Assembly: GCA_028279745.1 (NCBI GenBank)
Contig: JANQNC010000001.1
Location: forward strand, 120,001 to 152,000
DNA from: Candidatus Nanoarchaeia archaeon
GTDB taxonomy: Archaea; Nanobdellota; Nanobdellia; Woesearchaeales; JANQNC01
Reading direction: 5' to 3'
DNA: 32,000 nt
Every line of letters begins with the position of its first letter. The first letter of the stretch is position 1. A program made the translations under genes and the position numbers. Below are positions 2,976-32,000 of this stretch, in pieces. The notes beneath the pieces were generated by a model. It was not told where the DNA came from, ran no database searches, and saw only the letters and a program-made list of their open reading frames with translations.

Positions 2976-3002
2976 ATGAAAAATAAAAAATTATAGTGAT
3001 CC

Positions 3003-5291: not shown

Positions 5292-6866
5292 ATGTGCGGG
5301 ATTGGAGGGGTGTATATTAAGAATCATAAACGAAATAGACTGAATGCTCTTCTTTATGCTCACAGGATAGGGGTTGCACAGCAGAACAGAGGAGATTTCT
5401 ATTCGGGTATGAGTTGGTATAAGCGAGCACCAAGGAAAGACAGAGATCCATTTAATGTCTTAGTGAATGAAGGTTCTTTCTTAACTGCGTTCGGCACACC
5501 TGAATCTTATGAATTCAAAAATTTGATCAGAACTAACAACGCCAAAGTTGCAACTTCGCACAACAGGTACAAAACAGAAGGAAAAAAGAAAGAAGGACAT
5601 CCAGTCGTAACAAGACATGACAGAGCATTCAAACAATTCTCATTGGTTCACAATGGAACAATGTATAAAGATCACATGAAAAACCAACTCAGAGGAGATA
5701 AAGCAAACTACATAAAAAGGTCAGACATGGATACGGAGTATGCAAGAATCATGCTTGCAAGAGCACTGAAAGATTTTGACAACATTCCAAGCATAGATGA
5801 TTACGTAAATATTTTTAGCGAGCTAAGCAAAAAAGAGTTCACACCTTCATACTCTTTCGGGTTCTTAGATACTAATGCACAACTGATAGCTGTGAGAGAT
5901 CCCCAAGGGATAAGACCTTTATGCTATTTTGAAGACGATGAAGTTTTTGCATTTGCATCACAGACAGATGCACTACTAAAAACCTTTTCTGGAAGGGTTG
6001 GCGATTCAGACATAAAGATGTTAGAGCCTGGACATATGTTGGTCGCAAGAAAGAATAAGGTAACCAAACATAAGTTTGCCGAATCAAAAAAGAAATCCTG
6101 CTGCATATTTGAAGCAATATACTTCATGAATACAGGGGGGAGATTTGAGGACATAATGATCCAAACTTCACGTAACTCTTTGGGTGAGAAACTAGGATCA
6201 AACCCTGAAGTGTATCAAGAGATGCAAAAAGATATTGCTAATGGGTTGGAGCCAGTAATCGCACCTGTGCCGGGAACAGGGATACCAATAGCAAATTCAG
6301 TACAGGAGGCATTGTACAACACGTATAACCAATTTGTTCCTATGAGTGACGTATTAATAAAAGTCGGAGCATTCAGATCATTTATAGCAGAAGGAGACAA
6401 ACTAGAGAAAGTAAAGTTTAAATTTGATGTATCTCACAGACTTTTTAAAGGAAAAAGTGTTTATTTAGTTGATGACAGCATAGTTAGAGGAACTACAAGT
6501 AAAGAAATAACACAATATGTAAAAGAAGTTGGTGGCGCAAGTAAAGTTAATTGGTTAGTTGCGGCATCCCCTAATAGGTTCCCTTGCTTCTATGGTATAA
6601 ACATGCCAACGCTTGATGAACTAATAGCATCAAATAAAACCATATCTCAAGTGAGAGAAGCAATTGCAGCAGACTTTTTACATTACAACTCTAACGAAGA
6701 TATGAGGGATGCAGTGGAGTCATGCTCTGAACTTTTAGGAAGAAAAGATTTTTGTGATTCCTGTTTCACAGGAGATTATCCTACACGAGAAGGACAGACA
6801 ATGTACTGGAGAGCTTATAGAAAAGCAGAAAAGAATGGTTGGAAACCTAACGGATTTAAGAATTAA
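5292..6866 (+). CDS. purF: amidophosphoribosyltransferase (Fe-S cluster type)
   Basis: 524 aa. N-terminal nucleophile MCGIGG, SHNRYKT, HNGTMY, PRPP motif VYLVDDSIVRGTTS. Cluster cysteines in CCIFEAIYF, CFYGINMP and CDSCFTGDYP. Confidence 0.85.
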   Translation: MCGIGGVYIKNHKRNRLNALLYAHRIGVAQQNRGDFYSGMSWYKRAPRKDRDPFNVLVNEGSFLTAFGTPESYEFKNLIRTNNAKVATSHNRYKTEGKKKEGHPVVTRHDRAFKQFSLVHNGTMYKDHMKNQLRGDKANYIKRSDMDTEYARIMLARALKDFDNIPSIDDYVNIFSELSKKEFTPSYSFGFLDTNAQLIAVRDPQGIRPLCYFEDDEVFAFASQTDALLKTFSGRVGDSDIKMLEPGHMLVARKNKVTKHKFAESKKKSCCIFEAIYFMNTGGRFEDIMIQTSRNSLGEKLGSNPEVYQEMQKDIANGLEPVIAPVPGTGIPIANSVQEALYNTYNQFVPMSDVLIKVGAFRSFIAEGDKLEKVKFKFDVSHRLFKGKSVYLVDDSIVRGTTSKEITQYVKEVGGASKVNWLVAASPNRFPCFYGINMPTLDELIASNKTISQVREAIAADFLHYNSNEDMRDAVESCSELLGRKDFCDSCFTGDYPTREGQTMYWRAYRKAEKNGWKPNGFKN

Positions 6867-10164: not shown

Positions 10165-10205
10165 CTCTTGTTAGGGATATCTGATTAAGTCTTATAATTA
10201 GCTTA

Positions 10206-10234
10206 TATTATTTATATTCTGAATATAAATAATA
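10206..10234. promoter_or_regulatory. perfect 29-nt palindrome (14-bp arms) centred between two divergent TATA boxes; candidate operator
   Basis: TATTATTTATATTC-T-GAATATAAATAATA checked base by base. Flanked by a minus-strand TATA (10191-10198) and a plus-strand TATA (10240-10247). Confidence 0.45.
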
Positions 10235-10270
10235 GAAAGTTATATAAATAATGCTTCATTTCTATATATT

Positions 10271-11167
10271 ATGAAGAGGAAATTGATCAAGCAAGGTAAA
10301 GGAGCATTAACAATCTCTTTACCTAAAGAATGGGTAGAATTCCATGGGTTGAAAGCAGGAGAAGAGGTAGATGTAAATGAAGAAGAAAATGATCTTTTAA
10401 TCAAAGCAGGTGATTCAAACTATGTTAAAACCGCAAGTATAAATTTAGATTTTGACACTTCTGAAAGTTATAGAAGTATTATTGGCGGGTTATATAGGGG
10501 CGGGTTTGATGAGATAAATGTTGACTTTACAGATAAAAGAGTCATCCCTGATCTTCAGAAAGCAGTTGACTCATTATACGGTTTTGAAGTTTTAGATGTT
10601 AATGAATCAGGTTGTACCATAAAATACATACACAAAGGAGAGTCAACAGACATAACTTCTCACATAAGAAGAATAATCCATACAATAAAGACAATGCAAA
10701 CTATCTTGGGTGAAGACATAAAAGCTAAACAAACAAATTCTAAAAATGAGATCCTTCAATTCAGAAATAATGTGTTAAAACAGAGAGATCTGATTTTGAA
10801 AATAATCAAAAATCAGAAATTACTTGATAATCAACATTTTCCTTACTATAACATTTCAATATGTTTATGGAATGTGGCAAGAAATTACTACCTTATGTAT
10901 CTTAATCTTGGATCTGGTAAAAAATATTCTCCAAAAAGTATAAACTTCCTTAACAAGACAAACAAATTCTTTTCAGACCAGTTTAATGGATTTACTTCAC
11001 TAAGTGCTAAAGATTTTATCAAAAGAAACAAAGACTACCAGAAAATAAGATCAGAAGGACTTAACCTGATGAATAGTGAAAATTCTATCTTAGTTTCATT
11101 CTGTATCAACATAATCTTGTCGATCCAATCAGCAGACTCATCAATATTCCTTCTGAACCATAAATAG
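10271..11167 (+). CDS. AbrB/SpoVT-domain DNA-binding protein with PhoU-like C-terminal region
   Basis: 298 aa. N-terminus MKRKLIKQGKGALTISLPKEWVEFHGLKAGEEVDV is a typical AbrB/SpoVT swapped-hairpin motif. The helical remainder resembles archaeal PhoU-type regulators. Confidence 0.55.
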   Translation: MKRKLIKQGKGALTISLPKEWVEFHGLKAGEEVDVNEEENDLLIKAGDSNYVKTASINLDFDTSESYRSIIGGLYRGGFDEINVDFTDKRVIPDLQKAVDSLYGFEVLDVNESGCTIKYIHKGESTDITSHIRRIIHTIKTMQTILGEDIKAKQTNSKNEILQFRNNVLKQRDLILKIIKNQKLLDNQHFPYYNISICLWNVARNYYLMYLNLGSGKKYSPKSINFLNKTNKFFSDQFNGFTSLSAKDFIKRNKDYQKIRSEGLNLMNSENSILVSFCINIILSIQSADSSIFLLNHK

Positions 11168-12983: not shown

Positions 12984-14969
12984 TTACCAGTATCTCATTA
13001 CTAAGAATATTCCTAGGCCGATGAATCCAACAATTGCTAATACAAGAACTGTTGTCAAAGCGATACCTTCCCAGTTAACTTCCTCAACGTACTCAGCAAT
13101 AGCTGCTCCGCCTTGTCCGTTACCGCCAACAGTAATGTCTGAACCGATTACTCCAACTCCGCCAGGTGTTGTACCTGTCGAGGTTGTTTGGTCAGATGAT
13201 CCGGATGTAGAGTCTGATCCGCATTCTTTAACTGTTAGTTTTAGGGTTTCTGTTTCACTAACATCGTCGTTTTTAGCCTTAACAATTATTGTGTAATCGT
13301 CAGCACTAACTTCGTCAATGTTTAATGTGAAAGTATCGTCCCATTTATCGCCTTCATCTAGGTCAATATTGTCTTCTTCGATATCAATACCTAGTTTTGA
13401 ATTTTCGATTGAAAGCTCGATGTTGTTTTGATCATTTGAACCTGTGTTCTTCATCTCAACTTCAATCTCAATGCTTGTTTCATCACAAGCAAGCTCGTCA
13501 GGTGTAACTCTTAATGTTTCAAAGGTTAGTTCATCTTCTTCTCTGTCTATCTCTAGAGTGAAGTTCAGAACATCTTCGTGCTCAACATCGTTATCATCAG
13601 TTCCTGTTGCTGTGATTAAAACTTGGTATTTGTCATCATTTCTAACATCGCTGTCAACCTTAAATGAGAACTTAGCTTTTTCGTCATCATCCTTGTTTCT
13701 TTCGCCAGGGTCAAGTTTTCCAACTGATTCTGATTCTGAGTCATCCCAGTCATCATCGTCAAGAGGATCTATCTCAATCTTAACATCGATGCTTCTTATG
13801 TCAACATTTTCATCATCTGTAAATAAGTTCTTAACAACAACTTCAAACTCGATCTCTTCGTCAGGTGATACCTTTTCGTTATCTCCTTCGTTTATTGAGG
13901 TTGTGTCTCCATCAATTATCATGTCAACATCGTAGATACTTAGTTTACTTTCAAGCTCAACTGTTACAGGGATTGTTTTTGTGATTCCTGCTCCTTCAGC
14001 TCTTATTGTACCTGTGTATGTCTCAGCATCTAGGCTGTCTGAAGCTGCTAGTGTAACTAAAACATCTCTTGAAGCTCCTGCTTGAACTAAGAATGAGTCT
14101 TGATCAAATACAAGGTCTAGATCAGATACTGTTTCTGAAAGGTTAACCATAACATCAGCTGATCCTGTGTTGTTTATTGTAAATGTTGCATTCAATGATT
14201 CGTTCCAGCTTCCACTTAGGCTAACTGAGCTATCTTCAAACTTGAAGTCTGCTACAGGTGGAACAACATTCAATGTTATATCTGATGTATCAGCTCCGCC
14301 GTTAAATGCGCCTGTAAGTGTTCCTACGTAAGCACCATCTGCAATACCTGAAGGTATTGTTACTTGTACTTGGATAGGTTTTGTTTGGCCAACTGCCAGG
14401 TTTGTGGATTGTGGTGTGAATTGAACACTTGAAGATCCGATTGTTGTGTTTCCAGTTAGTCCTGTGCTTGATAATCCAACAGTAACTTCATCATTTCCAA
14501 CGTTTTGTACGCTTAGAACTCCTGTAACTGTCTGACCAGCAACTCCTGATATTACAACATCATTCATTGTAACGTTCATAACTGGCTCTTCTACATTTAG
14601 TACAAATACAAAGTCGTTGTTTGTTTCATCTTCTTCTGTAACTGTGTTTTCAGGATCCATTGAAACTGTAACGTTGTATGTTGCACTTTGGTTAAAATAT
14701 ACTTCTATGTTGTGTGTTGTTGCTGAGTTATCTGCAAAAACAGGGATTGTTCTTGTAGCTATAACTGAGTTATCAACACTTACGGTGTAATTAAACATAT
14801 TAGCTGTTTCGTTTCCGTTGTTTGCAAGGTCAATTACTAGTAAGGTGTTTGAATCTGCGATTGCAGGATCAACTAGACTTACATCCATGTCATCAACGGT
14901 TAGGTCTGGCAAAGCGAACACTGCTGTCATTGCCATCAATATTGTTAATATTAGTGTTAGTTTTTTCAT
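12984..14969 (-). CDS. acidic cell-surface protein with CARDB-type repeats, S/T/G-rich stalk and C-terminal TM anchor
   Basis: Start moved to MKKLTLILTILMAMTAVFA (ATG 14967-14969, GGTGAGGT SD upstream). CARDB hallmark ...VTVSMDPENTVTEEDETNND. C-terminus GIALTTVLVLAIVGFIGLGIFLVMRYW. Confidence 0.7.
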   Translation of the reverse strand: MKKLTLILTILMAMTAVFALPDLTVDDMDVSLVDPAIADSNTLLVIDLANNGNETANMFNYTVSVDNSVIATRTIPVFADNSATTHNIEVYFNQSATYNVTVSMDPENTVTEEDETNNDFVFVLNVEEPVMNVTMNDVVISGVAGQTVTGVLSVQNVGNDEVTVGLSSTGLTGNTTIGSSSVQFTPQSTNLAVGQTKPIQVQVTIPSGIADGAYVGTLTGAFNGGADTSDITLNVVPPVADFKFEDSSVSLSGSWNESLNATFTINNTGSADVMVNLSETVSDLDLVFDQDSFLVQAGASRDVLVTLAASDSLDAETYTGTIRAEGAGITKTIPVTVELESKLSIYDVDMIIDGDTTSINEGDNEKVSPDEEIEFEVVVKNLFTDDENVDIRSIDVKIEIDPLDDDDWDDSESESVGKLDPGERNKDDDEKAKFSFKVDSDVRNDDKYQVLITATGTDDNDVEHEDVLNFTLEIDREEDELTFETLRVTPDELACDETSIEIEVEMKNTGSNDQNNIELSIENSKLGIDIEEDNIDLDEGDKWDDTFTLNIDEVSADDYTIIVKAKNDDVSETETLKLTVKECGSDSTSGSSDQTTSTGTTPGGVGVIGSDITVGGNGQGGAAIAEYVEEVNWEGIALTTVLVLAIVGFIGLGIFLVMRYW

Positions 14970-14974
14970 TGTTC

Positions 14975-15667
14975 TTACCTCACCAAGTTTATTCTTTGTG
15001 TTTGGACGCCCTTGTCTGTTTCCATTCTGACTAAGTATGTGCCAGATGAAAGATCGTTTGCATTCCATCCCACAGTGTATCTTCCTGCGTCTAGTTTGCC
15101 GTTAACAAGGTTTTCAATCATTCTTCCTTTTGTATCATAGACACCTATCTTTACATCTCCTGCATTATCCAAATCAAATATTACATTTGTTGACGGGTTT
15201 GCAGGGTTAGGTGCTGCTGTCAATCCATATTCTGGATTTTGAGCTGGCTGCTCAATGCCAATGCCATTAACAACATCTTCGATACCTTTCAAATCTTTTT
15301 CAACTTCACTAACTGCGCTGTCTAGGTTAGCTGAAGTATCGATTGCTTTGAAGTATAATGAGTTTTCATATGTTGCAGAGTCTTGCAATGCTGCTGTTGA
15401 GTCATCTGCGAAACTTATGTATCCTGCTTGGAATACCATTTCTGGTTCGCTGTCTGCGTTGACCATTATACATTGGTTCATCTCTTGGAAATTGCCATTT
15501 CTATCATACTCATACTGTTTTGTCTTAAGACTGTCAGTTTGTTGAGCGGTAGGGAATTTTTCAACTAGCTTGTTGTAGAATTCTGCCATTGTAAAAGGCA
15601 TGGCTGCCTGAGCTGCAATTAACAATGCAGCGGTTGTAGCTACGATTTTTCCTTTTATGCTTTTCAT
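14975..15667 (-). CDS. secreted protein with C-terminal T9SS-type-A-sorting / FlgD-Ig-like beta-sandwich domain
   Basis: 230 aa. Signal peptide MKSIKGKIVATTAALLIAAQAAMP. Last 84 aa read NPANPSTNVIFDL..VKIGVYDTKGRMIENLV..AGRYTVGWNANDLSSGTYLVRMETDKGVQTQRINLVR. AAGGAGG SD plus an A7 spacer before the ATG. Confidence 0.6.
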   Translation of the reverse strand: MKSIKGKIVATTAALLIAAQAAMPFTMAEFYNKLVEKFPTAQQTDSLKTKQYEYDRNGNFQEMNQCIMVNADSEPEMVFQAGYISFADDSTAALQDSATYENSLYFKAIDTSANLDSAVSEVEKDLKGIEDVVNGIGIEQPAQNPEYGLTAAPNPANPSTNVIFDLDNAGDVKIGVYDTKGRMIENLVNGKLDAGRYTVGWNANDLSSGTYLVRMETDKGVQTQRINLVR

Positions 15668-15968: not shown

Positions 15969-16637
15969 TTAGGTGGTTTGAAGCAGTATTTTGTCCAAAC
16001 TGTATATTTCCTTTAATCTGTAGTCTGCAACCGTCTTTTGTCTAGGTTCGCCATTTACAAGCGCTGTAAGTATGTTTAAGCTGTTAGCTGGGACTATGTC
16101 TACCTGTTCTCTATCTCCTACAAACATCATCTGTTCCAGTGAAATTCCTAAAGTTGTGGCAACATATCTGAATGCAGAACCATCTTCTCTTGTGTGGTCA
16201 GTTCTGCCGTATTGTGGGATCGAGAATGTAGTTTCACTAATGCCTAATGCGTTAAGTTTTGAGATTGCATCATCTTTTTTACTGCTTGTTATTAGATATA
16301 GTTCGTATTCTTCGTGTAATTTCCTCATAAGTTCAACTAGTTTTGGATCTTCTTTGAGGTATTGTGCTATGTTCGCTTGAGCGATAGCTTCTTGAGCAAT
16401 CTTTGCTCCTTCGGGAATTCCCATTGCCAATAAAGAACGTCTAACACTTTGTTTTTCATCATAGAGTTTTTTGTAGCCTTCTTTTATCTCTTTAGTCGGG
16501 ATCCCTAGAATCTCATGCGCTTTTTGGATAACATATTTTTCGATCATATGAGAAGCTTTCCCGTCGGGCTTGTATAAAGTCTTGTCTAGATCAAAACCAA
16601 CCGCTCTTATCCCCCTATCGATAACCTTTAAGTCCAT
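15969..16637 (-). CDS. HAD-superfamily hydrolase/phosphatase
   Basis: 222 aa. Motif I VGFDLDKTLY, motif II LITSS, motif IV FVGDREQVDI. TATA box 30 nt upstream on the minus strand (16660-16667). Confidence 0.75.
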   Translation of the reverse strand: MDLKVIDRGIRAVGFDLDKTLYKPDGKASHMIEKYVIQKAHEILGIPTKEIKEGYKKLYDEKQSVRRSLLAMGIPEGAKIAQEAIAQANIAQYLKEDPKLVELMRKLHEEYELYLITSSKKDDAISKLNALGISETTFSIPQYGRTDHTREDGSAFRYVATTLGISLEQMMFVGDREQVDIVPANSLNILTALVNGEPRQKTVADYRLKEIYSLDKILLQTT

Positions 16638-18529: not shown

Positions 18530-19357
18530 TCAATTTTTTCTTTTATTGTTTTTTGGGTATATGAATATTGGGTTGAAGTTTAATGTCGTATCTGATTTTA
18601 AGTTTTGGTAATCTTTGTCATGTAACTGTCCTATGACTATTGCAACGTCTTTGTTTGTTGTTATTCCCTTTTTGTAAAGGAGGTCTGAATGAGATATTGC
18701 GTAGTTTAGTGCATCTTTGCTTCTTTTGATTCTTTGAGTCGTTATCATATCTTTGATTTTTCTCATATTTATTTTTCCGCTTCTTTGATGTTCTTCTATG
18801 ATGCTCTTGTGAGAGTCAAACATTTTTTGATATTCAAAACCAACAAGGTATGTTTCTGGATCGACTAAACAGTAAAGCTGTGCTCCAAGATAGGGCAAAT
18901 CTATTATTTGTTTTTCCAAGAAGGAATCTTCTTCGCTGATCCTTCTTTTTAGCGAGGGAAAATCTTCCCCTTTTCGTTTTATTCTTTTTTGAAACGAGTT
19001 TGGTCTTTCGATATCGCTTTTTTCATGATACTTTACGCCTTCACAACAGACAACCTGTAGATCTTCTTTTTTGTGCAGATGTTCAAGAATTCTGTATATG
19101 GAGGTTTGATTGGGAAAAGCATAATTTTTGTTTATGAACTCTTCCTCATCCTTAGGTATCATTCCGCTGTTTATTGAAGGGTGTATTTGAAATATAAAAT
19201 AAACATTTCTTTGGTTTGTTCTTTCTTTTTGTTCTAATTTGCCGACATACTTTTCAATAGGGTTTAGATTTAGATGTTGAAGGGGCTGATTACAACTTAG
19301 TGATGTTGCCAGATATGTGGCCAACAGCGTGTTTAGAGCCTTCTTGATAAGTTTCAT
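18530..19357 (-). CDS. hypothetical exported/anchored protein (weak Tiki/ChaN/TraB-like pattern)
   Basis: 275 aa with an N-terminal hydrophobic segment. By-eye pattern FIFQIHPS ... VVCCEGV ... AIVIGQLHDKD recalls the paired GxxH/E motifs of the Tiki/ChaN/TraB superfamily, but this is unverified. Confidence 0.45.
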   Translation of the reverse strand: MKLIKKALNTLLATYLATSLSCNQPLQHLNLNPIEKYVGKLEQKERTNQRNVYFIFQIHPSINSGMIPKDEEEFINKNYAFPNQTSIYRILEHLHKKEDLQVVCCEGVKYHEKSDIERPNSFQKRIKRKGEDFPSLKRRISEEDSFLEKQIIDLPYLGAQLYCLVDPETYLVGFEYQKMFDSHKSIIEEHQRSGKINMRKIKDMITTQRIKRSKDALNYAISHSDLLYKKGITTNKDVAIVIGQLHDKDYQNLKSDTTLNFNPIFIYPKNNKRKN

Positions 19358-24329: not shown

Positions 24330-24989
24330 TTAGTCTTTCAATATTTTCTCAAACTGTTTTGTATTAAAGTCTAGGAACGGTTTTTCGGTGAAATAAATTC
24401 TAGCATTAGAGCTATCCCATATCAAAAAACCTCTAAGTTTTCTCTTTTTTCCAGTCTTTATGATTAGTGCAGGGGGCAAGAAGCCAGAGGTAGAAAGATT
24501 TTCTTTCAAGTCAGCTTTGGTTAGTGTTTCAGGATCGATCTTTCCTGTCTTGATCTTTATCCCAATAACTTTACAAGCATCGACAATCTCTTGCTGTCCA
24601 TCATAGTTGATGCAAAAGTTCAAGAAAAAATTATCATAATCTTTAGTGTCAGACATTATCTCTTTAATCGTATCAACAAGTTCAGAGTTAAGATCGTACC
24701 ATTTACCCACAACAGAAACTTTAACTTGCCGCTCTTTAATAAAGTTGGAATCTTTCAAAAATTTAAAGTAAGCTTTTGCAGCGTCATTCTCAATCTGCTT
24801 AGGCAAGTATAAGGTAAGCATCCTAAGATTGTTTTCTAACTGAAATCTGACTAGTTCATCAATCCTTTTGAAATAGTCCTTAGTTATCTCATGATTGTCA
24901 TCACTAGCAACAATAATCCCTGCGTGTTTAATCTCAATCTTATCGTTACTGAACATGTTATGGGGGAATATGAAAAACTTTATAAGCAT
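24330..24989 (-). CDS. cis-prenyltransferase (UppS) fold protein lacking the N-terminal catalytic motif
   Basis: C-terminal blocks INYDGQQEIVDA and LIIKTGKKRKLRGFLIWDSSNARIYFTEKPFLDF align to UppS NYGGR.EI and IRTGGE.R.SNFLLWQ.AYAE.YF. The N-terminal HAGIIVASDDNHEI replaces H.AIIMDGNGRWA. The true start may be Met12 (24956). Confidence 0.6.
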   Translation of the reverse strand: MLIKFFIFPHNMFSNDKIEIKHAGIIVASDDNHEITKDYFKRIDELVRFQLENNLRMLTLYLPKQIENDAAKAYFKFLKDSNFIKERQVKVSVVGKWYDLNSELVDTIKEIMSDTKDYDNFFLNFCINYDGQQEIVDACKVIGIKIKTGKIDPETLTKADLKENLSTSGFLPPALIIKTGKKRKLRGFLIWDSSNARIYFTEKPFLDFNTKQFEKILKD

Positions 24990-25009: not shown

Positions 25010-25927
25010 ATGATAGATGTTGTATTGTTAACATTAGGATTATTGGGGCTGATAGTAGGTTCTATCACAGACATAAAAACAAGAGAAGTACCCGATTGGG
25101 TAAACTATTCTCTGATAGGATCGGGATTAGGATTAAGATTATTGTATTCAGTATCTAGTTTTGACTTTGGTTATTTCTTATGGGGGTTAGCAGGCTTTGG
25201 AATCTTTTTTGCATTGGCTTGGATAATGTATTATACTGGGCAATGGGGTGGAGGAGATTCAAAAATGTTAATGGGAATGGGCGCATTATTTGGAACATAT
25301 CCTGAATTCTTGTTTAAAGTGTTTAACCCTAAACTAAGTCATATCTTGTTGCCTGAAGTCTTGAATAATTCACTAAGTTTCTTACTGGCATTCTTAGTCA
25401 ATCTCTTATTTGTAGGTGCAATCTATGGCTTGTTTTGGAGTATCGGTCTGTCGATCAAGAACAGAAAGAAGTTCATGGTTGATTTTAAGAAAAGGATGAA
25501 AGTAAAGAAAGTAGTTGTGTTAAGAAGAGTGATTTTGATTTTAGGCTTGTTAATTTTGTTATCAATATTATTTGTTACTAATGCAGTTTATCAAGTGCTG
25601 GCATTAATAGGTGTGTTTGTTGCTTTGTTAACATTCTATGTCTGGGCTTATGTCAAGAGTGTGGAGAATGTCTGTATGTATAAGACAGTAAGTGCAACAA
25701 AAGTAACTGAAGGAGATTGGATAGCAGAAGATGTAATGCATGATGGAAAGAAAGTTTATTCTGCAAATCAGTTGGGCATAGAAAAGAAAGATATGTTGAA
25801 ATTGGTTAAGTTAAAAGTTAAAAAAGTTGTAGTGAAGGAAGGAATACCATTTGTGCCTTCATTTTTAGTTTCATTTATTATTTCTTTAACGTTGGGGAAT
25901 TTGATGTTTTTGATGCTTAAATTTTAG
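25010..25927 (+). CDS. A24-family prepilin/preflagellin (class III signal) peptidase
   Basis: 305 aa, polytopic. Catalytic Asp motifs GSITDIKTREVPDW and WGGGDSKMLMGMGALFG. TATA box TTTATAAG 31 nt upstream. Confidence 0.8.
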   Translation: MIDVVLLTLGLLGLIVGSITDIKTREVPDWVNYSLIGSGLGLRLLYSVSSFDFGYFLWGLAGFGIFFALAWIMYYTGQWGGGDSKMLMGMGALFGTYPEFLFKVFNPKLSHILLPEVLNNSLSFLLAFLVNLLFVGAIYGLFWSIGLSIKNRKKFMVDFKKRMKVKKVVVLRRVILILGLLILLSILFVTNAVYQVLALIGVFVALLTFYVWAYVKSVENVCMYKTVSATKVTEGDWIAEDVMHDGKKVYSANQLGIEKKDMLKLVKLKVKKVVVKEGIPFVPSFLVSFIISLTLGNLMFLMLKF

Positions 25928-25963: not shown

Positions 25964-26467
25964 ATGAAGTATGTATTAGCGATATTGATTCTTCTTATGG
26001 TTACAGTTGTAGTTGCACAACCAAGACCGCCTCTTGATTGTGCGGAACAAGGAATGGTGCATGTAGGTAATTGTAGAACTTATGATGGGGATCCATCATG
26101 TGAAAACTATTATTCAGACAACATTTCAATATATGGAAAGAACCGATCCTGTATTGTGAGTGGAAACTTCTGTATTGAGGGCGGAACTTATTGTAGTGAT
26201 GGTGTTGATTGTTATGATTTAACTTATGTTTCAGAATGTCCCGCTGTCGATTCTCAAGCTTGTTTAGAATACTATACTGATAACTATGGGGCTCTGCCTT
26301 ACAATGTAACTTGTTTTGATGATGATGGATGTAATATAAGAGTTGGAGATATATGCTTTAATGGTTTAGGGTCTGAGAGTGAGATACCTGAGTTCGGAAG
26401 CAGTGCAATGATTATAGTTGTGTTAGTTGCAGTTGTTGCAGGATTTGTATTTGTTAAGAAAAAATAA
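25964..26467 (+). CDS. Cys-rich secreted protein with PEF-CTERM-like sorting tail
   Basis: 167 aa. Signal peptide, 12 Cys, two C-x-[NE]-YY-[ST]-DN repeats. C-terminus EIPEFGSSAMIIVVLVAVVAGFVFVKKK has a PEF motif, a TM helix and a basic tail. TATA box 29 nt upstream. Confidence 0.6.
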   Translation: MKYVLAILILLMVTVVVAQPRPPLDCAEQGMVHVGNCRTYDGDPSCENYYSDNISIYGKNRSCIVSGNFCIEGGTYCSDGVDCYDLTYVSECPAVDSQACLEYYTDNYGALPYNVTCFDDDGCNIRVGDICFNGLGSESEIPEFGSSAMIIVVLVAVVAGFVFVKKK

Positions 26468-27055
26468 TTAAGGAATTCTTTCTAAAGTTTTATTGAGATT
26501 ACTTTCTTCTTTAACTTCTTCTTTCTTCTCTTCCTTAATCTCAATAGGCTTAGCTTTAACCTCTCCAATTTGGATTGGTTTAGAATTAATCTTATCAAAT
26601 AATTTTGCTAAGTCTTCATCAGCAATCTTTTGAGGATTCCAACTAAACTGTAATCCATCATTTTCAGTTCTAGGAATAACGTGAATAATAAAATGTGGTG
26701 CCCTTTGATCTGCAGCAGGACCGTTTTGTATTAAGATATTCGTACCTTGAATGTTCATAGTCTCAAATAAGTTGTTAGTTATGGCTTTAGAAACTCGAGT
26801 CATAATTGCGAGAGTTTCTTCAGGAACCTGACTAATGATCTGATAATGTTCTTTAGGAATTACAAGAATATGGCCTGGGCTAGCAGGATTTATGTCTAAT
26901 ATTGCTATGCAAACCTCATCTTCGTATAATTTCTTAGCAGGAATCTTTCCACCTACAATCATACAAAAAGGACAGTTCTGTTTCTGTAATTCTGCCAACT
27001 TTTCAGGAGGTAAATCCTTTAGTTGTTGTTCTTGTTCTGGTGTCAATTCAGGCAT
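26468..27055 (-). CDS. HIT-family protein with K/E-rich C-terminal extension; middle His of the triad replaced by Ile
   Basis: CPFCMIVGGKIPAKKLYEDEVCIAILDINPASPGHILVIPKEH, then NGPAADQRAPHFIIHVIPR. Codons at 26681-26695 read CAT TTT ATT ATT CAC on the minus strand. Confidence 0.8.
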   Translation of the reverse strand: MPELTPEQEQQLKDLPPEKLAELQKQNCPFCMIVGGKIPAKKLYEDEVCIAILDINPASPGHILVIPKEHYQIISQVPEETLAIMTRVSKAITNNLFETMNIQGTNILIQNGPAADQRAPHFIIHVIPRTENDGLQFSWNPQKIADEDLAKLFDKINSKPIQIGEVKAKPIEIKEEKKEEVKEESNLNKTLERIP

Positions 27056-27130
27056 TTTAAGAAATTGTGATTGAATTCATTTAATAATTTTGCTAATTTA
27101 TACTTGATACACCAAAACCTTTATAAATCC

Positions 27131-27156
27131 TTAATAAGAATTATAATTCTTAATAA
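27131..27156. promoter_or_regulatory. 26-nt near-perfect palindrome (perfect 18-nt core TAAGAATTATAATTCTTA) over the predicted TSS of the RHH gene; candidate operator
   Basis: Checked base by base, with one mismatched pair. The TATA box TTTATAAA at 27120-27127 sits immediately upstream. Confidence 0.45.
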
Positions 27157-27172
27157 AATAAGGGGTGTTTGG

Positions 27173-27358
27173 GTGAAAAAAGCATTAGCAGTAAGTTTAG
27201 ACAAGGAATTAATAGATTGGATAAACTCAAAAGCAAATTCTAAAGGATTCAGAAATAGATCACACTTAGTAGAAGAAGCAATAAACAAATTCAAGAATGA
27301 AATAACTGGAGAAAATAAAGCATTAGCTGAGAATGAGGAGGAAGCAGATGAAGAGTAA
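27173..27358 (+). CDS. ribbon-helix-helix (CopG/Arc-like) DNA-binding protein
   Basis: 61 aa from GTG 27173 (AAGGGGTG SD upstream). VKKALAVSLDKELIDWINSKANSKGFRNRSHLVEEAINKF fits a beta-strand, helix, helix layout, followed by an acidic tail. The N-terminal 34 codons in the track cover the promoter and are rejected. Confidence 0.6.
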   Translation: MKKALAVSLDKELIDWINSKANSKGFRNRSHLVEEAINKFKNEITGENKALAENEEEADEE

Positions 27359-30300
27359 ACTAATGCTTTGGATGTTAGTAATGTTCTCATTAGTTGGTTC
27401 TGCTTTAGCTGTTAATGTAGCACTAGAAGCACCAGTAACTTGCGAATCAAAATTTGGTGGAGCAAGTTTAGCATTCTACTGCAACAATTCAGTAGACGGA
27501 GTCAAAGGAACATCAAGCTTTGATGAATGGGCGGCAGACGGAAACCCAAACGCAACAAGAGAGATATGGGTAAATATTTCATTTGTTCCTTCTGCAAACA
27601 TAGATGAGATATGGATATACCCTAGAAAGGATTATACGCAAAATGATGGGATCAATGATTCTTACATCAGGTTCTCAGACCTATCAACCTACCGAACAGG
27701 ACAGATCGCAGGCAGCTTTAGTGTACCTCACAAATTCAACACAACAGACTTTGGAACAAAAGACAACATCCAGTGGTTAGAGTTTGTAATCAACGGGTCA
27801 GAACCCGGAGGAAATGTAGGGTTGTCAGAAATAGAAGTCTTTGGAGAATTTTTAGAAGCATGTAAAACAATAAATTCAGCAGGAACACATAAACTCTTTG
27901 AAGATGCAGAGTCTAACGGGACATGTATAACAGTAAATGCTTCGTCTGTAACTGTAAATTGTCAAGACTTTACAATAACTGGAAACGGAACAGGCTATGG
28001 AGTTACAGCATCAGGAGTGTCAAATGTAGTTGTAGAGAATTGTACTTTTGTTAACTTTAGTTCAGGAATAAACTTTAATGGCAATAGTGGCGATTCAGTA
28101 ATAAGGAACAATTTATTCTCTGGTTCTGGAAGTTCAGGTATAAGGATTGCCGGAGCAGATACAATCAATGTAACCAATAATACCTTCGAGGACAACCATC
28201 ATGGAATAGTGGTCAGTTCAGCATACGGTATGTACATAGAAAGAAATGACATAAGAAACAGCACAAGCAGAGGAGTTTACCTGTTTAACACATTTAACAC
28301 AACACTCTTCCTGAACAATGTATACTATAACTTAGTCGGGTTATTCTTGGATCCTTCATATAATAACCAGATAATAGAAAACCAAATCTTTGGAAATGCA
28401 GATGCAGGTTTGGAGTTAGTAGATTCTTACAACAACACCGTAATCAATAACACATTCTACAACAACACTAAAGGTGTGTCACTTAATCTATCAGAGAATA
28501 ACACATTTGTTAATAACAATTTATTTGAAAACTATGTTTCATTCTTACTATTTGGATTCTCATCAGGAAATAATTTATCAAATAACAGCATAGATTCAAC
28601 TGTGTTGGCAAATTTAACTCAAGCAGAAAATTTGACAGCACAATTCAACTATTGGAACACAACAAACGCAACAGAGATAGTAGCAAGAATGTTTGACTAC
28701 CATTTCCATAACTCATTAGGATTTGTTGATTTCTGTCCTTATCTGAATGAAACATTTGAAATCGACAGCGGTAATTATTTGATCGGGTCAGAACTATTTG
28801 GGGTGACAAACTATAACTGCTGTGACACAGAGGATTATTGTATCTCATCAAGCGGGGAATGCATAGCAGAAGGAGAGATACTAAACGGATATGAGTGTCA
28901 AGATGGAGGAATATGGCAAAGCATATGTGGATTGCCTTTAGACCCAGATACAGTTCTAGAACTAACAGGAGAGATAAGTTGTGCAGGCGATGGAATTGTA
29001 TTAGATAATAACTCATTCCTTAACTGTACAGACGCAGTGATAGTAGGAGACGGAACAGGATCAGGAATAGTGATGAATGATGTATTCAACACAACAGTAC
29101 AAGGATGTAATGTTACAAATTTCACAACAGGAATAAAAATAGATCCATCATTCAATAACACACTAATACAAAACAACATTTATGCAAACTCAGTTGCAGG
29201 ATTAGACTTATATGATTCTTATAACAACACAATCTTCAACAATACAATTTTCAATAATAGCCAATATGGGTTGGGATTGAATAATTCAGACGGCAACTTG
29301 ATTTATACAAATACTATTTTCAATAACTCATTAGCAGTAAGAGTTGTAGAAGGATCATCAGATAACAACTTCACAAATAACACCGTAGATGATACATCAC
29401 TAGTTAATCTGTCACAGGCAGATGATTTCTCAGCAGAGCTAAACTATTGGGGAACAGATTTAACTGCAACAATAGCGAATAGTGTTATGGATCTGTTTGA
29501 TAATGCAGCTTATGGAATTGTAGACTTTTGTCCTTACCTAAACAGCACAGGAACAGTTACAGGTGACTTAGTTATAGAATCAGTTCAAGGACCTAGTGTG
29601 TATTGGGGATGTTGTGACGATAGCACAAACTGTGTAAACTCTTCTGGAGAATGTGTAAGTTTCGGATCAATGGAAAATGATTATCTGTGTGTAGGTGATA
29701 ATGACTGGGCAGACTTAGGGGGTGTGTGTGAGGAAGATGTTGTAAACATAACATATCCTGCAGCATCTGAAACAGTTAATGATACGCTAAACATAACCTT
29801 TGTGCTTGATAGTTCTTTAGCACCATATGATGCACACTATGCAGTAGATGGGGGAGATTGGATTAATTGTACAGACGATTGTATATGGAATACCTCACAA
29901 TGGGAAGATGGAGAACATATGATACAAATCAATGATCCAGCACAAGACTGTGCAAAATCAAGACTAAGATTAGTTGTAACGGATAACTACTTAGAAACTT
30001 ATTTGGTCAATATTACTTCACCATTAGCTTCAGAAGTTGTAAATGAAACAGTAAATGTAACATTTGATGTTGATTCATCATTATTGCCTTACGATGCACA
30101 CCTAGCGATAGACGGAGGAGATTGGATCAACTGTTCAGGAGATTATTGTGAATGGGATACAACCTCAGAAGACGATGGGGAACACATAATACAACTCAAC
30201 GATCCAAATCAACAATCTGCAGAATCAAGAATAAGATTAATACTTGTTAATAACTTAGGAACAACAATGCCTAATGGTTCTATCTTTATCAACAATACAT

Positions 30301-32000
30301 TAGATAATGCTTACGAGATTGCAGATGAAAATAAAACAACATCGCGATCAGTTGTTCTTAACCTTAATTACTTAGATGATTATCTAAAAGATTGTAGATA
30401 TGCAAATGAAAATGTTTCAAACTTTGGAAGTTATGAAACATGTGTAACAGAAAAGAGCTGGGTGTTAAGTGAAGGAGCAGGAAATAAAACAGTCTTTTAT
30501 GAAATAAGGAATTTAGCTGATGTTTCAATAGTGTTAAATGATACAATAGAATTAGAAGGCAATCCCCCAACAACACCTGTAATAGACAGTTCACATGTTG
30601 AGGGTGCGTTCTCTAATGTTAATAATGTAAGCTTTAACTGGACATCAACAGATGCAGAATCACTAGTTGTGTTGTATAGCTTCACATTGGATCAAAATAA
30701 TGAGACTGAGCCAGCAACTGCTTTATCTTCTGCAACAGATGTAGATTATGTGAATTTGCCAGACGGAGATTATTGGTTCCACGTTAAAGCATATGATGAG
30801 GCAGGAAATCCAAGCGGTACTGCACACTACAATGTAAAAATAAGCACGGGAGTTGGAGGAGGAGACATAATACTATTCGGAGCACCAAGCTATACAAACT
30901 CTGCGTTTAATGTAAGTGGAGCAGTAAGTTCGGGATTAGGAAACGTAACAGTTAACCTTTACAGTAATGGAACATTATCAGGAACTACTGTGTTGAGTAA
31001 CATTGAAGGAGGATTTGAATTCACTTCAATAGACTTCATCGGAGACGGAGCTTATACCTTATGGGCAAACGCAACAGACAACGCATCAAACGAATACATG
31101 TCAAATGTTTTAGTTGTAAACTATGATACAGATGCTCCAGACATAACTGTGATAAGTCCTGGAGGATCACTGGGGCCAGGATCAATACCATTTATCTCAG
31201 TAGTCACAGATGAAGATGCATACTGTGAATATGACGGAGGAGAGGGTTATTTGAAATTCCAAGTAACAAACAACACAAGATTCCACGAGACAATCCTAGA
31301 AACAGATGGAAGTTATGATGTGAGGTGTACAGATCTGGCAGGAAATTCAGATGAGGACACAAATGCTGTTTCTTATTCAACAGGATGTTCACTATCTTCC
31401 TTCAGTATTCCTTCAACAATACTAGGAAATGCTGGAGAGACAGTTAACTTCACAGCGTCAGGAATAGGTTGTGCGGCAGTACACCATGCACGGTTTGGGA
31501 TGACATTGAATAATGTTCCCGTAGATGTAAGTGCTAGACAAACTGCAGGAACAGATTATCTTATACAATTCCAAGCACCGACTGTACAAGATGAATATGC
31601 TCTTGTGTTAACAGTTAATGACATAAGTGATTCAGGAACCCTTGACACCACAGAAGGCGCATCAGAAAGCGTAAACCTAGAAGTAACTTATGATGGGGGA
31701 TTAGATGACAGTTCAAACCACATAGTATACGCATCAGAAAATGACTATACTGTGGGGATAGCATCAGACTCAGGCAACACTGAAACAGATGAAGGCGGAA
31801 ATAAGATAACAACAAACCCCTCAGACGGCTCAGTCTACATATTTGTAACGGAACCAGGAGCAAATGTTGAAAATAGAGAAAGAAACTTGGAAGAAAAAGA
31901 ATTCATAGACTTCCAGAACCCAAGCTTCGGTTATAATATCAAAAAAGGAAAATACACAGTACAAGCATCAATCAATTATGACGACATACAGATAGAAGGA
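27348..32000 (+). CDS. giant secreted surface protein (over 1,551 codons, 3' end outside the window): discoidin-like domain, two right-handed beta-helix (PbH1/NosD-like) modules, Cys-rich knobs, Ig-like repeats
   Basis: Not in the track because no stop falls in the window. The frame is open from ATG 27348 (GAGGAGG SD upstream; alternative ATG at 27333) to base 32000. Signal peptide MKSKLMLWMLVMFSLVGSALA. ...NIQWLEFVINGSEPGGNVGLSEIEVFG is discoidin-like. Repeated N-x-x-I/V-x-N-N coils, NYW(N/G)T...VDFCPYLN, and DxAGN Ig-like motifs (YDEAGNPSG, CTDLAGNSDE). Confidence 0.85.
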   Translation, partial: MKSKLMLWMLVMFSLVGSALAVNVALEAPVTCESKFGGASLAFYCNNSVDGVKGTSSFDEWAADGNPNATREIWVNISFVPSANIDEIWIYPRKDYTQNDGINDSYIRFSDLSTYRTGQIAGSFSVPHKFNTTDFGTKDNIQWLEFVINGSEPGGNVGLSEIEVFGEFLEACKTINSAGTHKLFEDAESNGTCITVNASSVTVNCQDFTITGNGTGYGVTASGVSNVVVENCTFVNFSSGINFNGNSGDSVIRNNLFSGSGSSGIRIAGADTINVTNNTFEDNHHGIVVSSAYGMYIERNDIRNSTSRGVYLFNTFNTTLFLNNVYYNLVGLFLDPSYNNQIIENQIFGNADAGLELVDSYNNTVINNTFYNNTKGVSLNLSENNTFVNNNLFENYVSFLLFGFSSGNNLSNNSIDSTVLANLTQAENLTAQFNYWNTTNATEIVARMFDYHFHNSLGFVDFCPYLNETFEIDSGNYLIGSELFGVTNYNCCDTEDYCISSSGECIAEGEILNGYECQDGGIWQSICGLPLDPDTVLELTGEISCAGDGIVLDNNSFLNCTDAVIVGDGTGSGIVMNDVFNTTVQGCNVTNFTTGIKIDPSFNNTLIQNNIYANSVAGLDLYDSYNNTIFNNTIFNNSQYGLGLNNSDGNLIYTNTIFNNSLAVRVVEGSSDNNFTNNTVDDTSLVNLSQADDFSAELNYWGTDLTATIANSVMDLFDNAAYGIVDFCPYLNSTGTVTGDLVIESVQGPSVYWGCCDDSTNCVNSSGECVSFGSMENDYLCVGDNDWADLGGVCEEDVVNITYPAASETVNDTLNITFVLDSSLAPYDAHYAVDGGDWINCTDDCIWNTSQWEDGEHMIQINDPAQDCAKSRLRLVVTDNYLETYLVNITSPLASEVVNETVNVTFDVDSSLLPYDAHLAIDGGDWINCSGDYCEWDTTSEDDGEHIIQLNDPNQQSAESRIRLILVNNLGTTMPNGSIFINNTLDNAYEIADENKTTSRSVVLNLNYLDDYLKDCRYANENVSNFGSYETCVTEKSWVLSEGAGNKTVFYEIRNLADVSIVLNDTIELEGNPPTTPVIDSSHVEGAFSNVNNVSFNWTSTDAESLVVLYSFTLDQNNETEPATALSSATDVDYVNLPDGDYWFHVKAYDEAGNPSGTAHYNVKISTGVGGGDIILFGAPSYTNSAFNVSGAVSSGLGNVTVNLYSNGTLSGTTVLSNIEGGFEFTSIDFIGDGAYTLWANATDNASNEYMSNVLVVNYDTDAPDITVISPGGSLGPGSIPFISVVTDEDAYCEYDGGEGYLKFQVTNNTRFHETILETDGSYDVRCTDLAGNSDEDTNAVSYSTGCSLSSFSIPSTILGNAGETVNFTASGIGCAAVHHARFGMTLNNVPVDVSARQTAGTDYLIQFQAPTVQDEYALVLTVNDISDSGTLDTTEGASESVNLEVTYDGGLDDSSNHIVYASENDYTVGIASDSGNTETDEGGNKITTNPSDGSVYIFVTEPGANVENRERNLEEKEFIDFQNPSFGYNIKKGKYTVQASINYDDIQIEG
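27861..29735 (+). repeat. intragenic duplication: two beta-helix + NYWxT/CPYLN + CC-rich knob modules
   Basis: Module 1 spans 27861-28931 and module 2 spans 28932-29735. Landmarks FNYWNTT (28644) and LNYWGTD (29439) are 795 nt apart. Knobs: NCCDTEDYCISSSGECIAEGEILNGYEC versus GCCDDSTNCVNSSGECVSFGSMENDYLC. Confidence 0.7.
29739..30250 (+). repeat. tandem pair of approx. 89-aa (approx. 267-nt) repeats inside the giant gene
   Basis: VNITYPAASETVNDTLNITFVLDSSLAPYDAHYAVDGGDWINCTDD...GEHMIQINDP versus VNITSPLASEVVNETVNVTFDVDSSLLPYDAHLAIDGGDWINCSGD...GEHIIQLNDP. Confidence 0.75.

Follow-up and report, generated by a model that had tools for sequence, protein, structure and literature searches.

How is the gene of a large secreted protein controlled in a Woesearchaeota-type (DPANN) archaeon, where a small ribbon-helix-helix (RHH) gene with a palindrome at its promoter stands immediately upstream and overlaps its start? 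Host contact of DPANN archaea is believed to rely on proteins of the cell surface, and most lineages of the group, Woesearchaeota included, are uncultured; to our knowledge, almost nothing is known about the control of their surface-protein genes. The locus lies at the 3′ end of the window, i.e. the whole 32,000-nt stretch of DNA analysed here. With a probability of about 0.6, as judged from the sequence, its RHH operon would be negatively autoregulated, the RHH protein acting on the palindrome and the operon forming one transcription unit with the large surface-protein gene (27114–32000 plus ~100 nt beyond the window). Autoregulation of its own operon by a small RHH protein is classical logic, and the gain lies in biology and annotation, not in a new mechanism.

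The RHH gene (27173–27358, plus strand) comprises 61 codons from a GTG start at 27173 to a TAA stop at 27356–27358, and is preceded by the SD box AAGGGGTG (27160–27167, plus strand), with G-rich boxes present in the same place in related loci. The predicted layout of the protein was a beta-strand at residues ~3–9, helices at residues 11–21 and 29–47, and then an acidic tail. Pfam RHH_1 (PF01402) matched residues 7–41 with 22.2 bits against a gathering cut-off of 20.5, and the AF2 model, based on an alignment of 60 sequences, was extended over residues 1–10 and helical at 11–21 and 29–47, with a pLDDT of ~90 over residues 11–40. The strand was not called by DSSP in this model, as is expected for a monomer; RHH proteins are obligate dimers, in which a two-stranded sheet enters the major groove of a repeated operator. 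The best Foldseek matches of the model in the PDB were ParD, NikR, Arc and CopG (TM 0.6–0.73), and nearly all top matches were RHH proteins, with E-values that were weak owing to the small size. By Pfam, predicted topology and nearest PDB folds, the 61-aa ORF is a genuine RHH protein, as its layout had suggested in an earlier note made from the letters of the window.

In the loop and start of helix 2 (K-G-F-R-N-R-S-H), residues R27, N28, S30 and H31 were invariant in 60 homologues, and the segment aligned with the NikR motif GYNNRSE. The loop and helix-2 N-terminus of RHH proteins (of the G-x-S/T/N type) form the DNA backbone anchor. The C-terminal tails varied, being either acidic or provided with a GTLxKF motif. 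In total, the family had 439 members, many of them already annotated as PF01402 or “CopG family” at NCBI, and a protein identical to that of the window (P0001) was found in the NCBI data; the window itself contains one member only. The names of the homologues, together with the synteny, point to a Woesearchaeota-type source of the window.

Assignment to better-known RHH groups was rejected on several grounds. Similarity to the N-terminal domain of NikR was weak (14–17 bits against cut-offs of 83–175), and the 61-aa protein aligned in the N-terminal RHH region only, without the C-terminal ACT-like nickel-binding tetramerisation domain; the total length of NikR is ~130–150 aa. A type II toxin-antitoxin (TA) module was rejected since the downstream gene encodes a secreted beta-helix protein and the upstream gene a HIT protein, with no adjacent small toxin gene; the NCBIfam MazE match reached 20.2 bits, far under the cut-off of 65. 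From CdrS the protein was set apart by gene context and by the description of CdrS, the downstream gene not being ftsZ.

The RHH operon shares its intergenic region (27056–27172) with a divergent gene for a HIT-family hydrolase (26468–27055, minus strand; Pfam HIT). The operon promoter consists of the TATA box TTTATAAA (27120–27127, plus strand), recognised from the sequence and by comparison with the other promoters of the window, and of a BRE-like purine-rich element, AAAACC (27114–27119, plus strand), read directly 5′ of it. An A-rich motif in front of the TATA box was also seen in related loci and at other promoters of the window. Behind the TATA box lies the candidate operator, the 26-nt palindrome TTAATAAGAATTATAATTCTTAATAA (27131–27156), with arms of 13 nt, one mismatched pair and a perfect 18-nt core (27135–27152). 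It comprises the subsites TTAATAA (27131–27137), TTATAA (27141–27146) and TTAATAA (27150–27156), the centres of which are 9.5 bp apart, and occurs once within the window.

The TATA box of ~10 other genes in the window was located ~28 to 38 nt before the start codon, and these genes are therefore leaderless. At the RHH gene the box is at −53 from GTG 27173, the extra length corresponding to the palindrome and the SD box. Calibrated on the leaderless genes, the TSS is predicted at ~27150, within the right arm of the palindrome, which would cover roughly −19 to +6 of this site, in agreement with the previous suggestion that it overlies the start of transcription.

Symmetry by itself does not make the palindrome significant, as arms of at least 9 nt arose in 64 of 300 Markov shuffles of the window, and a perfect 18-nt palindrome is unremarkable alone; it gains significance by being conserved elsewhere, in the genomes of relatives. 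Reading the palindrome as an RNA hairpin or riboswitch was rejected (dG −6.2 kcal/mol, z = −0.29, no match in Rfam). Further long AT-rich palindromes were also present in the window.

In the related loci, a core with three TTATAA-like subsites ~9.5 bp apart, ATTATAAT, was invariant in 10 aligned promoters. The conservation of the palindrome, proposed earlier as a check, was thereby borne out: its core was retained just 3′ of the TATA box at nine operon heads (L001, L002, L004, L007, L023, L033, L035, L039 and L042), and the TATA box was conserved in 9 related loci. The 18-mer TAAGAATTATAATTCTTA, allowing up to 3 mismatches, gave 11 matches in 275 kb against 0.4 expected by chance, and the 7 independent matches all fell at RHH operon heads, each with a TATA box a few nt in front of it. 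The match at L023 was identical to the 18-mer of the window, with an RHH protein 49% identical to that of the window, and the window and L023 agreed at 26 of 28 nt. Among loci, the left half of the element was variable, as was the distance between element and TATA box (3–9 nt), and in L039 and L042 the element consists of three TTATAA copies spaced at 9 nt. Operator variants did not clearly covary, within the group, with the residues of the RHH beta-strand; the strand of the first RHH reads ALAVS or FPVS in loci that share an identical operator.

The large gene (27348–32000, plus strand) begins with ATG 27348, which overlaps the end of the RHH ORF by 11 nt (27348–27358). Its SD box, GAGGAGG (27335–27341, plus strand), is inside the RHH coding sequence, and no TATA box was found in the 70 nt upstream of the ATG. 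On re-reading, the positions given in the earlier note were exact throughout, i.e. the TATA box, the palindrome and its perfect core, the SD box, GTG and stop of the 61-aa ORF, and the ATG, SD box and 11-nt overlap of the downstream ORF, which stays open to base 32000. The window includes the first 1,551 of 1,583 codons, and full length was obtained from an identical protein (P0121, 1,583 aa), placing the gene end at ~32099, 32 codons past the window. The ORF is thus intact, not fragmented beyond the window edge, and what had been described as a giant protein of more than 1,551 codons is complete at 1,583 aa, “giant” applying in a relative sense only.

The N-terminus of the large protein, where a signal peptide had been noticed before, has a Sec-type layout, with basic residues, a hydrophobic stretch and A-L-A (MKSKLMLWMLVMFSLVGSALA, 27348–27410, plus strand; read from sequence). 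DUF7402 follows at aa 23–165 (27414–27842, plus strand; Pfam 37.9–45.1 bits, cut-off 27). The region had been called discoidin-like, which was not upheld: Pfam returned DUF7402 only, and a single-sequence AF2 model was poor (pLDDT 46.5). Pfam agreed with the earlier note on two beta-helix modules and Ig-like domains, all on the plus strand: a right-handed beta-helix module with its best Pfam stretch at aa 263–415 (28134–28592; Beta_helix E = 2.6e-43, with NCBIfam para_beta_helix repeats), a beta-helix/NosD module at aa 548–703 (28989–29456; NosD E = 2.8e-35), which also had a weak PDB match to AlgG C5-epimerase, and an Ig-like region with DxAGN motifs (30672–31130; Y_Y_Y at aa 1109–1158, Big_13 at aa 1187–1261). 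By its Beta_helix/NosD repeats and the export signal read from sequence, the protein falls among right-handed parallel beta-helix/NosD-like surface proteins; the score for the NCBIfam NosD equivalog was 79.6 bits against a cut-off of 300. N-glycosylation sequons (NxS/T) numbered 69, with 31 ± 4.8 expected, and the protein could accordingly be heavily N-glycosylated. The anchor sought by the earlier note was not present, as no C-terminal anchor or TM segment was found in the 1,583-aa protein. A surface or adhesin function, or a part in host attachment, is what we infer for this protein.

Of 14 distinct Woesearchaeota-type loci, 12 had 1–3 tandem RHH paralogues adjoining a large secreted-protein gene; the RHH genes lay directly upstream of it in 11 loci and directly downstream in one (L024). 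The paired loci were L001, L002, L004/L036, L007/L010, L023/L037, L024, L027, L033, L035, L039 and L042; in L003 and L025 the RHH family members were not beside a large gene. The neighbouring secreted proteins were 1,606–3,127 aa long or truncated by the contig end, and the overlaps between RHH and large gene were mostly 4, 8 or 11 nt (range 4–11 nt). Conservation of the small ORF upstream of large genes was in this way confirmed, and the pairing, previously regarded as unusual, is not a one-off but a lineage-wide feature. In the literature on Woesearchaeota or DPANN with ribbon-helix-helix, giant or surface proteins, the RHH/large-protein pairing was not found described. A scan of representative-genome contigs gave only 2 loci, and in a sister RHH subfamily (MKQSISVTVEK type) the downstream genes were variable.

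The surroundings of the operon recur as well. A cis-prenyltransferase gene of the UppS family (24330–24989, minus strand; Pfam Prenyltransf; same neighbour in L004, L033, L035, L039 and L042) and a peptidase A24 gene (prepilin-type signal peptidase, 25010–25927, plus strand; Pfam Peptidase_A24; same neighbour in L004/L036, L033, L035, L039 and L042) lie ahead of the operon both in the window and in five further genomes, and HIT genes were close to the operon also in L001, L007, L039 and L042. Across genomes RHH identity was 40–70%, where the cargo proteins were barely alignable; at a conserved address, a constant control region is thus combined with a very rapidly evolving cargo protein.

Some loci contain more than one pair. 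The array in L036 reads RHH, 3,127 aa, RHH, 1,856 aa, and in L036, L035, L027 and L024 each large gene has its own RHH gene, even within an operon and without a new promoter. Internal RHH genes, e.g. L036 10001 and L035 14437, were without an operator of their own, and autoregulation is therefore not the whole reason for the RHH gene at each large gene.

From the structure of the genes, the assigned RHH fold and the conserved gene pair, overlap and cis element, all of them observed here, we propose the following mechanism. Dimers of the RHH protein would occupy the three phased TTATAA-like subsites of the candidate operator (27131–27156), probably cooperatively and on one face of the helix, and the bound protein would leave the TATA box accessible but prevent RNA polymerase from being recruited or the promoter from opening; the direction of regulation would thus be repression. 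The RHH and large genes are probably co-transcribed and translationally coupled, because the large gene is without a promoter of its own and its SD box is buried in the RHH gene. Negative autoregulation would then cap or switch the output of a costly surface protein.

A different view, which we consider rather unlikely, is that the conserved AT-rich element belongs to the promoter itself (several TATA-like boxes in a row for TBP/TFB) or is the site of another regulator, the RHH protein acting elsewhere or activating the downstream gene as CdrS acts on ftsZ2. The TTATAA and TTAATAA subsites are of the same word class as the TATA boxes of the genome, a point at its plainest in the threefold TTATAA of L039 and L042, and the RHH strand does not covary with the operator variants. 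CdrS, the best-studied archaeal RHH protein co-transcribed with its target, is moreover an activator (PMC7439475). However, the element was confined strictly to RHH operon heads and found nowhere else in 275 kb, it is missing from the other promoters of the window, and the stretch shared by the window and L023 is much longer than a TATA hexamer. It is also located 3′ of the BRE/TATA box, which is where archaeal repressors typically bind and where activators are not expected.

It is very doubtful that the RHH gene serves the large gene chiefly as a partner or as part of a cassette, and not through a transcription factor, either as a ribosome-loading leader ORF or as an antitoxin-like or chaperone-like protein with a tail contacting the cargo or export. 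A mere leader ORF would not hold its level of identity and the RHH fold next to cargo that barely aligns, the invariant residues are hallmarks of DNA binding (the beta-strand and the R-N-R-S-H start of helix 2), and a toxin-like small gene is absent nearby, the MazE match being far too low; in favour of this view are the presence of an RHH gene at each large gene inside operons, the conserved stop/start overlaps, the variable tails and the identity of the weak NCBIfam match as an antitoxin. Chance adjacency, or a mobile-element remnant in which an RHH gene from a plasmid, virus or TA module landed upstream of a surface gene, is exceedingly improbable and already disfavoured. RHH proteins are common on mobile elements, and the sister subfamily with its variable downstream genes would fit such an origin, but the chromosomal neighbourhood is conserved in several MAGs and the GC content of the window is flat (0.33–0.38). 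A mobile or viral origin was rejected, 2.9 million viral contigs having yielded neither RHH relatives nor operator matches.

The proposed negative autoregulation through the palindrome has precedents in the CopG-RepB copy-control operon of plasmid pMV158 and in Arc/Mnt of phage P22, in which an RHH protein of 45–53 aa is encoded by the first gene, and cooperating dimers on a pseudo-symmetric operator over their own promoter autoregulate the downstream gene. Both CopG and Arc appeared as structural matches of the window protein, relatives of which are named “CopG family” by NCBI. These systems are, however, bacterial, sigma-70 dependent and carried on mobile elements, their cargo being a replication initiator or antirepressor, whereas the window operon is chromosomal, with an archaeal BRE/TATA promoter and a surface-protein cargo. 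Type II TA antitoxins (ParD, RHH-type MazE, CopG-like) gave the best fold matches and are similar in having a small RHH with a disordered tail, first place in the operon, a stop/start overlap and autoregulation (proposed for the window); their modules carry a toxin gene, in place of which the window has a gene for a 1,583-aa exported protein.

Among archaeal systems, aCcr1 is a 58-aa RHH repressor of cdvA in Sulfolobales (PMC9976878) and, by description, resembles the window protein as a small archaeal protein with an RHH domain only. It acts in trans on ~13 promoters of cell-division genes from outside the target operon, through a box, A(T/G)G(A)TA(G)A(T/G)TACN, unlike the window element, whereas the window RHH heads its own operon with a surface protein as cargo. 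The CdrS-ftsZ2 operon of Euryarchaeota, with synteny conserved across the lineage, likewise has a small RHH gene immediately 5′ of a co-transcribed structural gene that CdrS controls, but CdrS activates ftsZ2, the operon is under a second RHH protein, CdrL, and CdrS is reported absent from DPANN (PMC7439475); in the window, repression is the likely direction and the cargo is a secreted glycoprotein. On the cargo side, the nanohaloarchaeal SPEARE proteins (8,900–9,400 aa, membrane-anchored and containing a VirB4/TraG-like ATPase domain) are also very large, Sec-exported, Ig-like-rich proteins of small-genome archaea; they are thought to mediate host contact and vary between otherwise collinear genomes (PMC10266531). 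An RHH partner is not described for them, and the beta-helix-based window protein, at 1,583 aa and without ATPase domain or anchor, was rejected as a member of this group (>5,000 aa, VirB4/TraG-like ATPase, membrane anchor).

The locus offers a defined regulator family, a conserved DNA element and a genomic address (UppS, peptidase A24, RHH, large protein), and its regulation is a question open to recombinant protein and synthetic DNA, without cultivation. The RHH gene together with the operator is a simple marker for a variable surface-protein locus in new genomes, and the recurrence of the arrangement in Woesearchaeota-type (DPANN) archaea hints at how variable outer-surface proteins may be controlled. 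A bolder idea, which we regard as quite unlikely, is that the RHH and large gene form a cassette duplicating as a unit, the paralogous RHH proteins, perhaps as heterodimers on a shared operator of phased TTATAA sites, making up a combinatorial switch that determines if a hypervariable surface glycoprotein is displayed, and which one. If true, episymbiotic DPANN cells would possess an archaeal equivalent of surface-antigen or host-range switching. The L036-type arrays, and the operon heads with 1–3 RHH paralogues, fit this cassette idea.

The region 26800-27700 was reread, and the coordinates proposed in the earlier note for the TATA box, palindrome, SD box, GTG start, gene overlap and open frame each proved right. 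On the plus strand, a TATA box (TTTATAAA, 27120-27127), part of a BRE/TATA promoter at 27114-27127, is followed by a palindrome (TTAATAAGAATTATAATTCTTAATAA, 27131-27156) whose 13-nt arms pair throughout but for one mismatch, with a perfect core of 18 nt (27135-27152), and then by an SD box (AAGGGGTG, 27160-27167). The 61-codon ribbon-helix-helix (RHH) gene begins at GTG 27173, the correct start since its homologues all begin MKK(A/x) there, and ends with TAA at 27356-27358. It overlaps by 11 nt a large ORF on the same strand, which starts at ATG 27348, has an SD box GAGGAGG at 27335-27341, and stays open to base 32000 (1,551 codons inside the window). The 70 nt upstream of this ATG contain the SD box but no TATA box, evidence for joint transcription from a single promoter and for coupled translation.

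In about ten window genes the TATA box (TTTATAAA, TTTAAATA or TTTATATA, with an A-rich BRE ahead of several) starts 28-38 nt 5′ of the start codon, mostly near -30, and these genes are leaderless. Across the window this is the pattern of most genes, for example upstream of 4132, 4667, 5292, 6868-8760 (-), 15969-16637 (-), 18530-19357 (-) and 19462: TATA begins some 30 nt ahead of the start codon, an SD box is lacking, and leaderless transcripts therefore predominate. The RHH operon, with its leader and SD box, belongs to a small minority. The TATA box of the RHH gene, exceptionally, begins at -53, and the palindrome and SD box make up the additional ~23 nt. When the genome's own TATA-to-start distance is applied to this promoter, the predicted TSS falls in the right arm of the palindrome (about 27148-27153), in agreement with the earlier placing of the TSS within the palindrome. 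A stable RNA structure was ruled out for the element by the stability of its hairpin (z = -0.29) and by zero Rfam matches.

The small ORF encodes a ribbon-helix-helix protein of the RHH/CopG superfamily, as had been suspected from its layout. It scored 22.2 bits against Pfam RHH_1 (gathering cut-off 20.5), and the AF2 model, built on a 60-sequence alignment, displayed an extended N-terminus and helices at residues 11-21 and 29-47, with pLDDT of ~90 over residues 11-40. The top Foldseek PDB matches were ParD, NikR, Arc and CopG (TM 0.6-0.73), with the weak E-values expected for a length of ~45 residues. Sequence searches of PDB and NCBIfam returned weak matches to the NikR RHH domain and a MazE-type antitoxin, all far under the family cut-offs, and the identities TA antitoxin, NikR and CdrS were each rejected on testing for membership. 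Profile searching gathered 439 relatives, several named "CopG family RHH" and originating from Candidatus Woesearchaeota or Nanoarchaeota MAGs. Residues K2, R27, N28, S30, H31, E34 and A36 were invariant in the 60-sequence alignment. Many paralogues in this alignment, often the one directly before a large gene, share the C-terminal tail motif G-T-L-x-K-F/Y (in the related loci fetched for comparison, here numbered L001-L044, e.g. L001 914-1075, L023 5992-6159 and L033 10001-10186); the single RHH of the window has an acidic tail instead.

The large ORF is identical to the NCBI protein P0121 (1,583 aa, from a 1.30-Mb contig) and thus ends 32 codons past the window, which dispels the earlier concern that it might be fragmented there. 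This cargo is a beta-helix/Ig surface protein. Its signal peptide (MKSKLMLWMLVMFSLVGSALA, recognised as Sec-type by reading the sequence), two beta-helix/NosD modules and Ig-like Y_Y_Y and Big_13 domains (Pfam) match the earlier description. Residues 23-165 match DUF7402, and the label discoidin-like was not confirmed. The protein contains 34 cysteines and 69 N-x-S/T sequons, where its composition predicts 31 ± 4.8; identity as a SPEARE-type giant was rejected. No C-terminal transmembrane segment was found in the 1,583 aa. The last ~90 residues form a domain without a Pfam model (...YIFVT...NPSFGY...YDDI.I.G...V.I.N.G...; ~31730-32000, aa ~1460-1583 of P0121), also present in large proteins of L003 (10626-~10900, -) and L024 (~900-1207), which may act as a surface attachment or sorting domain in place of a TM anchor. 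A host-attachment role of the cargo is speculative.

The palindrome occurs once in the window and by itself is not improbable: perfect palindromes with arms of at least 9 nt were present in 64 of 300 Markov shuffles, and the window contains further long AT-rich palindromes. Its weight derives from comparison with other genomes. When 3 mismatches were allowed, TAAGAATTATAATTCTTA matched 11 times in the whole 275 kb of fetched DNA (0.4 expected). The seven independent matches (window, L001, L002, L004, L007, L023, L035) each sit in front of the first RHH gene, within a few nt 3′ of a BRE/TATA box, which bears out the conservation on which the earlier proposal depended. In L023 the 18-mer is identical to that of the window and 26 of 28 nt are shared, despite divergent RHH proteins (49% identity for the matched RHH). 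L033 carries a 4-mismatch version at the same position, and in L039 and L042 the element reads TTATAATAATTATAATAATTATAA; ATTATAAT is invariant in the alignment. The shared design is three TTATAA/TTAATAA subsites, 9-10 bp apart, which in the window happen to form a 26-nt palindrome.

RHH relatives were gathered from protein and contig collections and analysed by ORF lists and six-frame HMM scan. RHH genes adjoin a large secreted protein gene in 12 of 14 distinct Woesearchaeota-type loci, window included. A single RHH gene precedes the 1,583-aa protein in the window and, in L002, a signal-peptide beta-helix protein resembling the start of the window's N-terminal beta-helix. Two precede a secreted ELW-repeat protein (L001) or proteins of 1,797 aa (L023/L037), 2,430 aa (L033) and 1,621 aa (L042/43), and three precede proteins of >1,468 aa (L007/L010) and 1,606 aa (L039-41). 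The order is RHH, 3,127 aa, RHH, 1,856 aa in L004/L036; two RHH, 2,531 aa, two RHH and at least 1,426 aa in L035, where the gene continues beyond the fetched locus; large-gene tail, RHH and new large gene in L027; and large gene, RHH and small proteins in L024. The exceptions are L003 (RHH, then a 77-aa membrane protein) and L025 (RHH, then an HTH protein). Stop and start usually overlap by 4, 8 or 11 nt. UppS and peptidase A24 lie ahead of the operon in the window, L004, L033, L035, L039 and L042, and HIT genes are close to it. Cargo identity between equivalent loci is 25-33%, restricted to beta-helix repeats, with other cargoes LamG- or PQQ-based; the RHH proteins keep 40-70% identity.

The best-supported reading, to which as a whole we assign a probability of roughly 0.6, is negative autoregulation of the operon by the RHH protein. 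Transcription would proceed from the BRE/TATA promoter, and RHH dimers on the three phased subsites, covering about -19 to +6, would leave the TATA box accessible and block RNA polymerase recruitment or promoter opening, so that synthesis of both RHH and the large glycoprotein would be repressed by RHH itself; translation of the two genes would be coupled through the 11-nt overlap and the SD box lying within the RHH gene. RHH binding, direction of regulation and TSS are all three predicted, and the autoregulated switch of the earlier note is upheld overall with binding and repression as putative steps. CopG-RepB is the bacterial textbook analogue of a self-regulating RHH operon. An archaeal precedent is CdrS-ftsZ2, in which an RHH gene shares one transcript with its structural target (PMC7439475), as proposed here.

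Alternatively, the element beside the TATA box could be a site for TBP or some other factor, or RHH could be an activator, a reading that we regard as unlikely. Internal RHH genes precede second large genes without any operator, and this prompts the idea of RHH as primarily a cassette, leader or partner component, which we judge distinctly improbable. Neither the element nor the RHH family was found in 2.9 million viral contigs, and adjacency as a chance event or mobile-element remnant is scarcely credible beside its recurrence across loci.

No description of RHH paired with large surface-protein genes was found in the Woesearchaeota/DPANN literature searched. The control logic is classical; new are the lineage-wide, previously undescribed association, the hypervariable cargo, the tandem RHH paralogues and the alternating RHH/large-gene cassettes. 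The locus is of moderate to good interest as a concrete, cultivation-free handle on DPANN surface-protein regulation.

Where an RHH gene lies between two successive large genes, it overlaps the stop codon of the first and the start codon of the second and brings neither a TATA box nor an operator of its own (L036 449-15746; L035 6530-16852; L027 28-1278; L024 65-1349); RHH and large gene are apparently duplicated together, as one cassette. The lead RHH genes of L035 (~6542) and L039/L040/L041 (~8733), missed by gene finders, apparently start with ATA/ATT directly after the SD box; with GTG in the window and L001, weak start codons may be a recurring feature of the lead RHH. Between peptidase A24 and HIT, at a point from which related genomes pass directly to the RHH operon, the window has an inserted gene (25964-26467) for a cysteine-rich protein of 167 aa that carries a signal peptide and a C-terminal hydrophobic anchor and has no Pfam match.

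The window (GC 33-38%) encodes archaeal markers, among them ribosomal protein L15e, ThyX and peptidase A24, and its homologues come from Woesearchaeota/Nanoarchaeota MAGs. A second probable surface protein (694 aa, CARDB/Ig-like) is encoded at 12984-15068 (-). Upstream of gene 10271-11167, in a divergent intergenic region, there is a near-perfect palindrome of 35 nt (TTATATTATTTATATTC-G-GAATATAAATAATAGAA, 10203-10237). The product of this gene has a DNA-binding domain of MazE/AbrB type at its N-terminus; the locus may be another case in the window of a gene with its own operator. The intergenic region 2782-3178 contains two adjacent perfect inverted repeats: CTGCAAATTT/AAATTTGCAG (2925-2945, 10-nt arms) and CAAAAATTTGT/ACAAATTTTTG (2952-2975, 11-nt arms). 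Among the related loci, a sister RHH subfamily (MKQSISVTVEK...; L005-L022, L028, L029, L044) is preceded by a strongly conserved region distinctive of it, TTATAGGATAAAATATATAAGCC ... GTGTAAAATATAAAAGGAG, but occurs in unrelated contexts with variable downstream genes, none for an associated large protein. In L003, labelled Methanosarcinales, possibly by binning error, four tandem 15-nt repeats (GTTTAGAAAAAATAT-like, 6236-6300) precede an RHH paralogue without the palindrome. A more distant RHH subfamily in L030 (6001-8122) forms three consecutive cassettes, each of an RHH followed by a ~280-aa protein.
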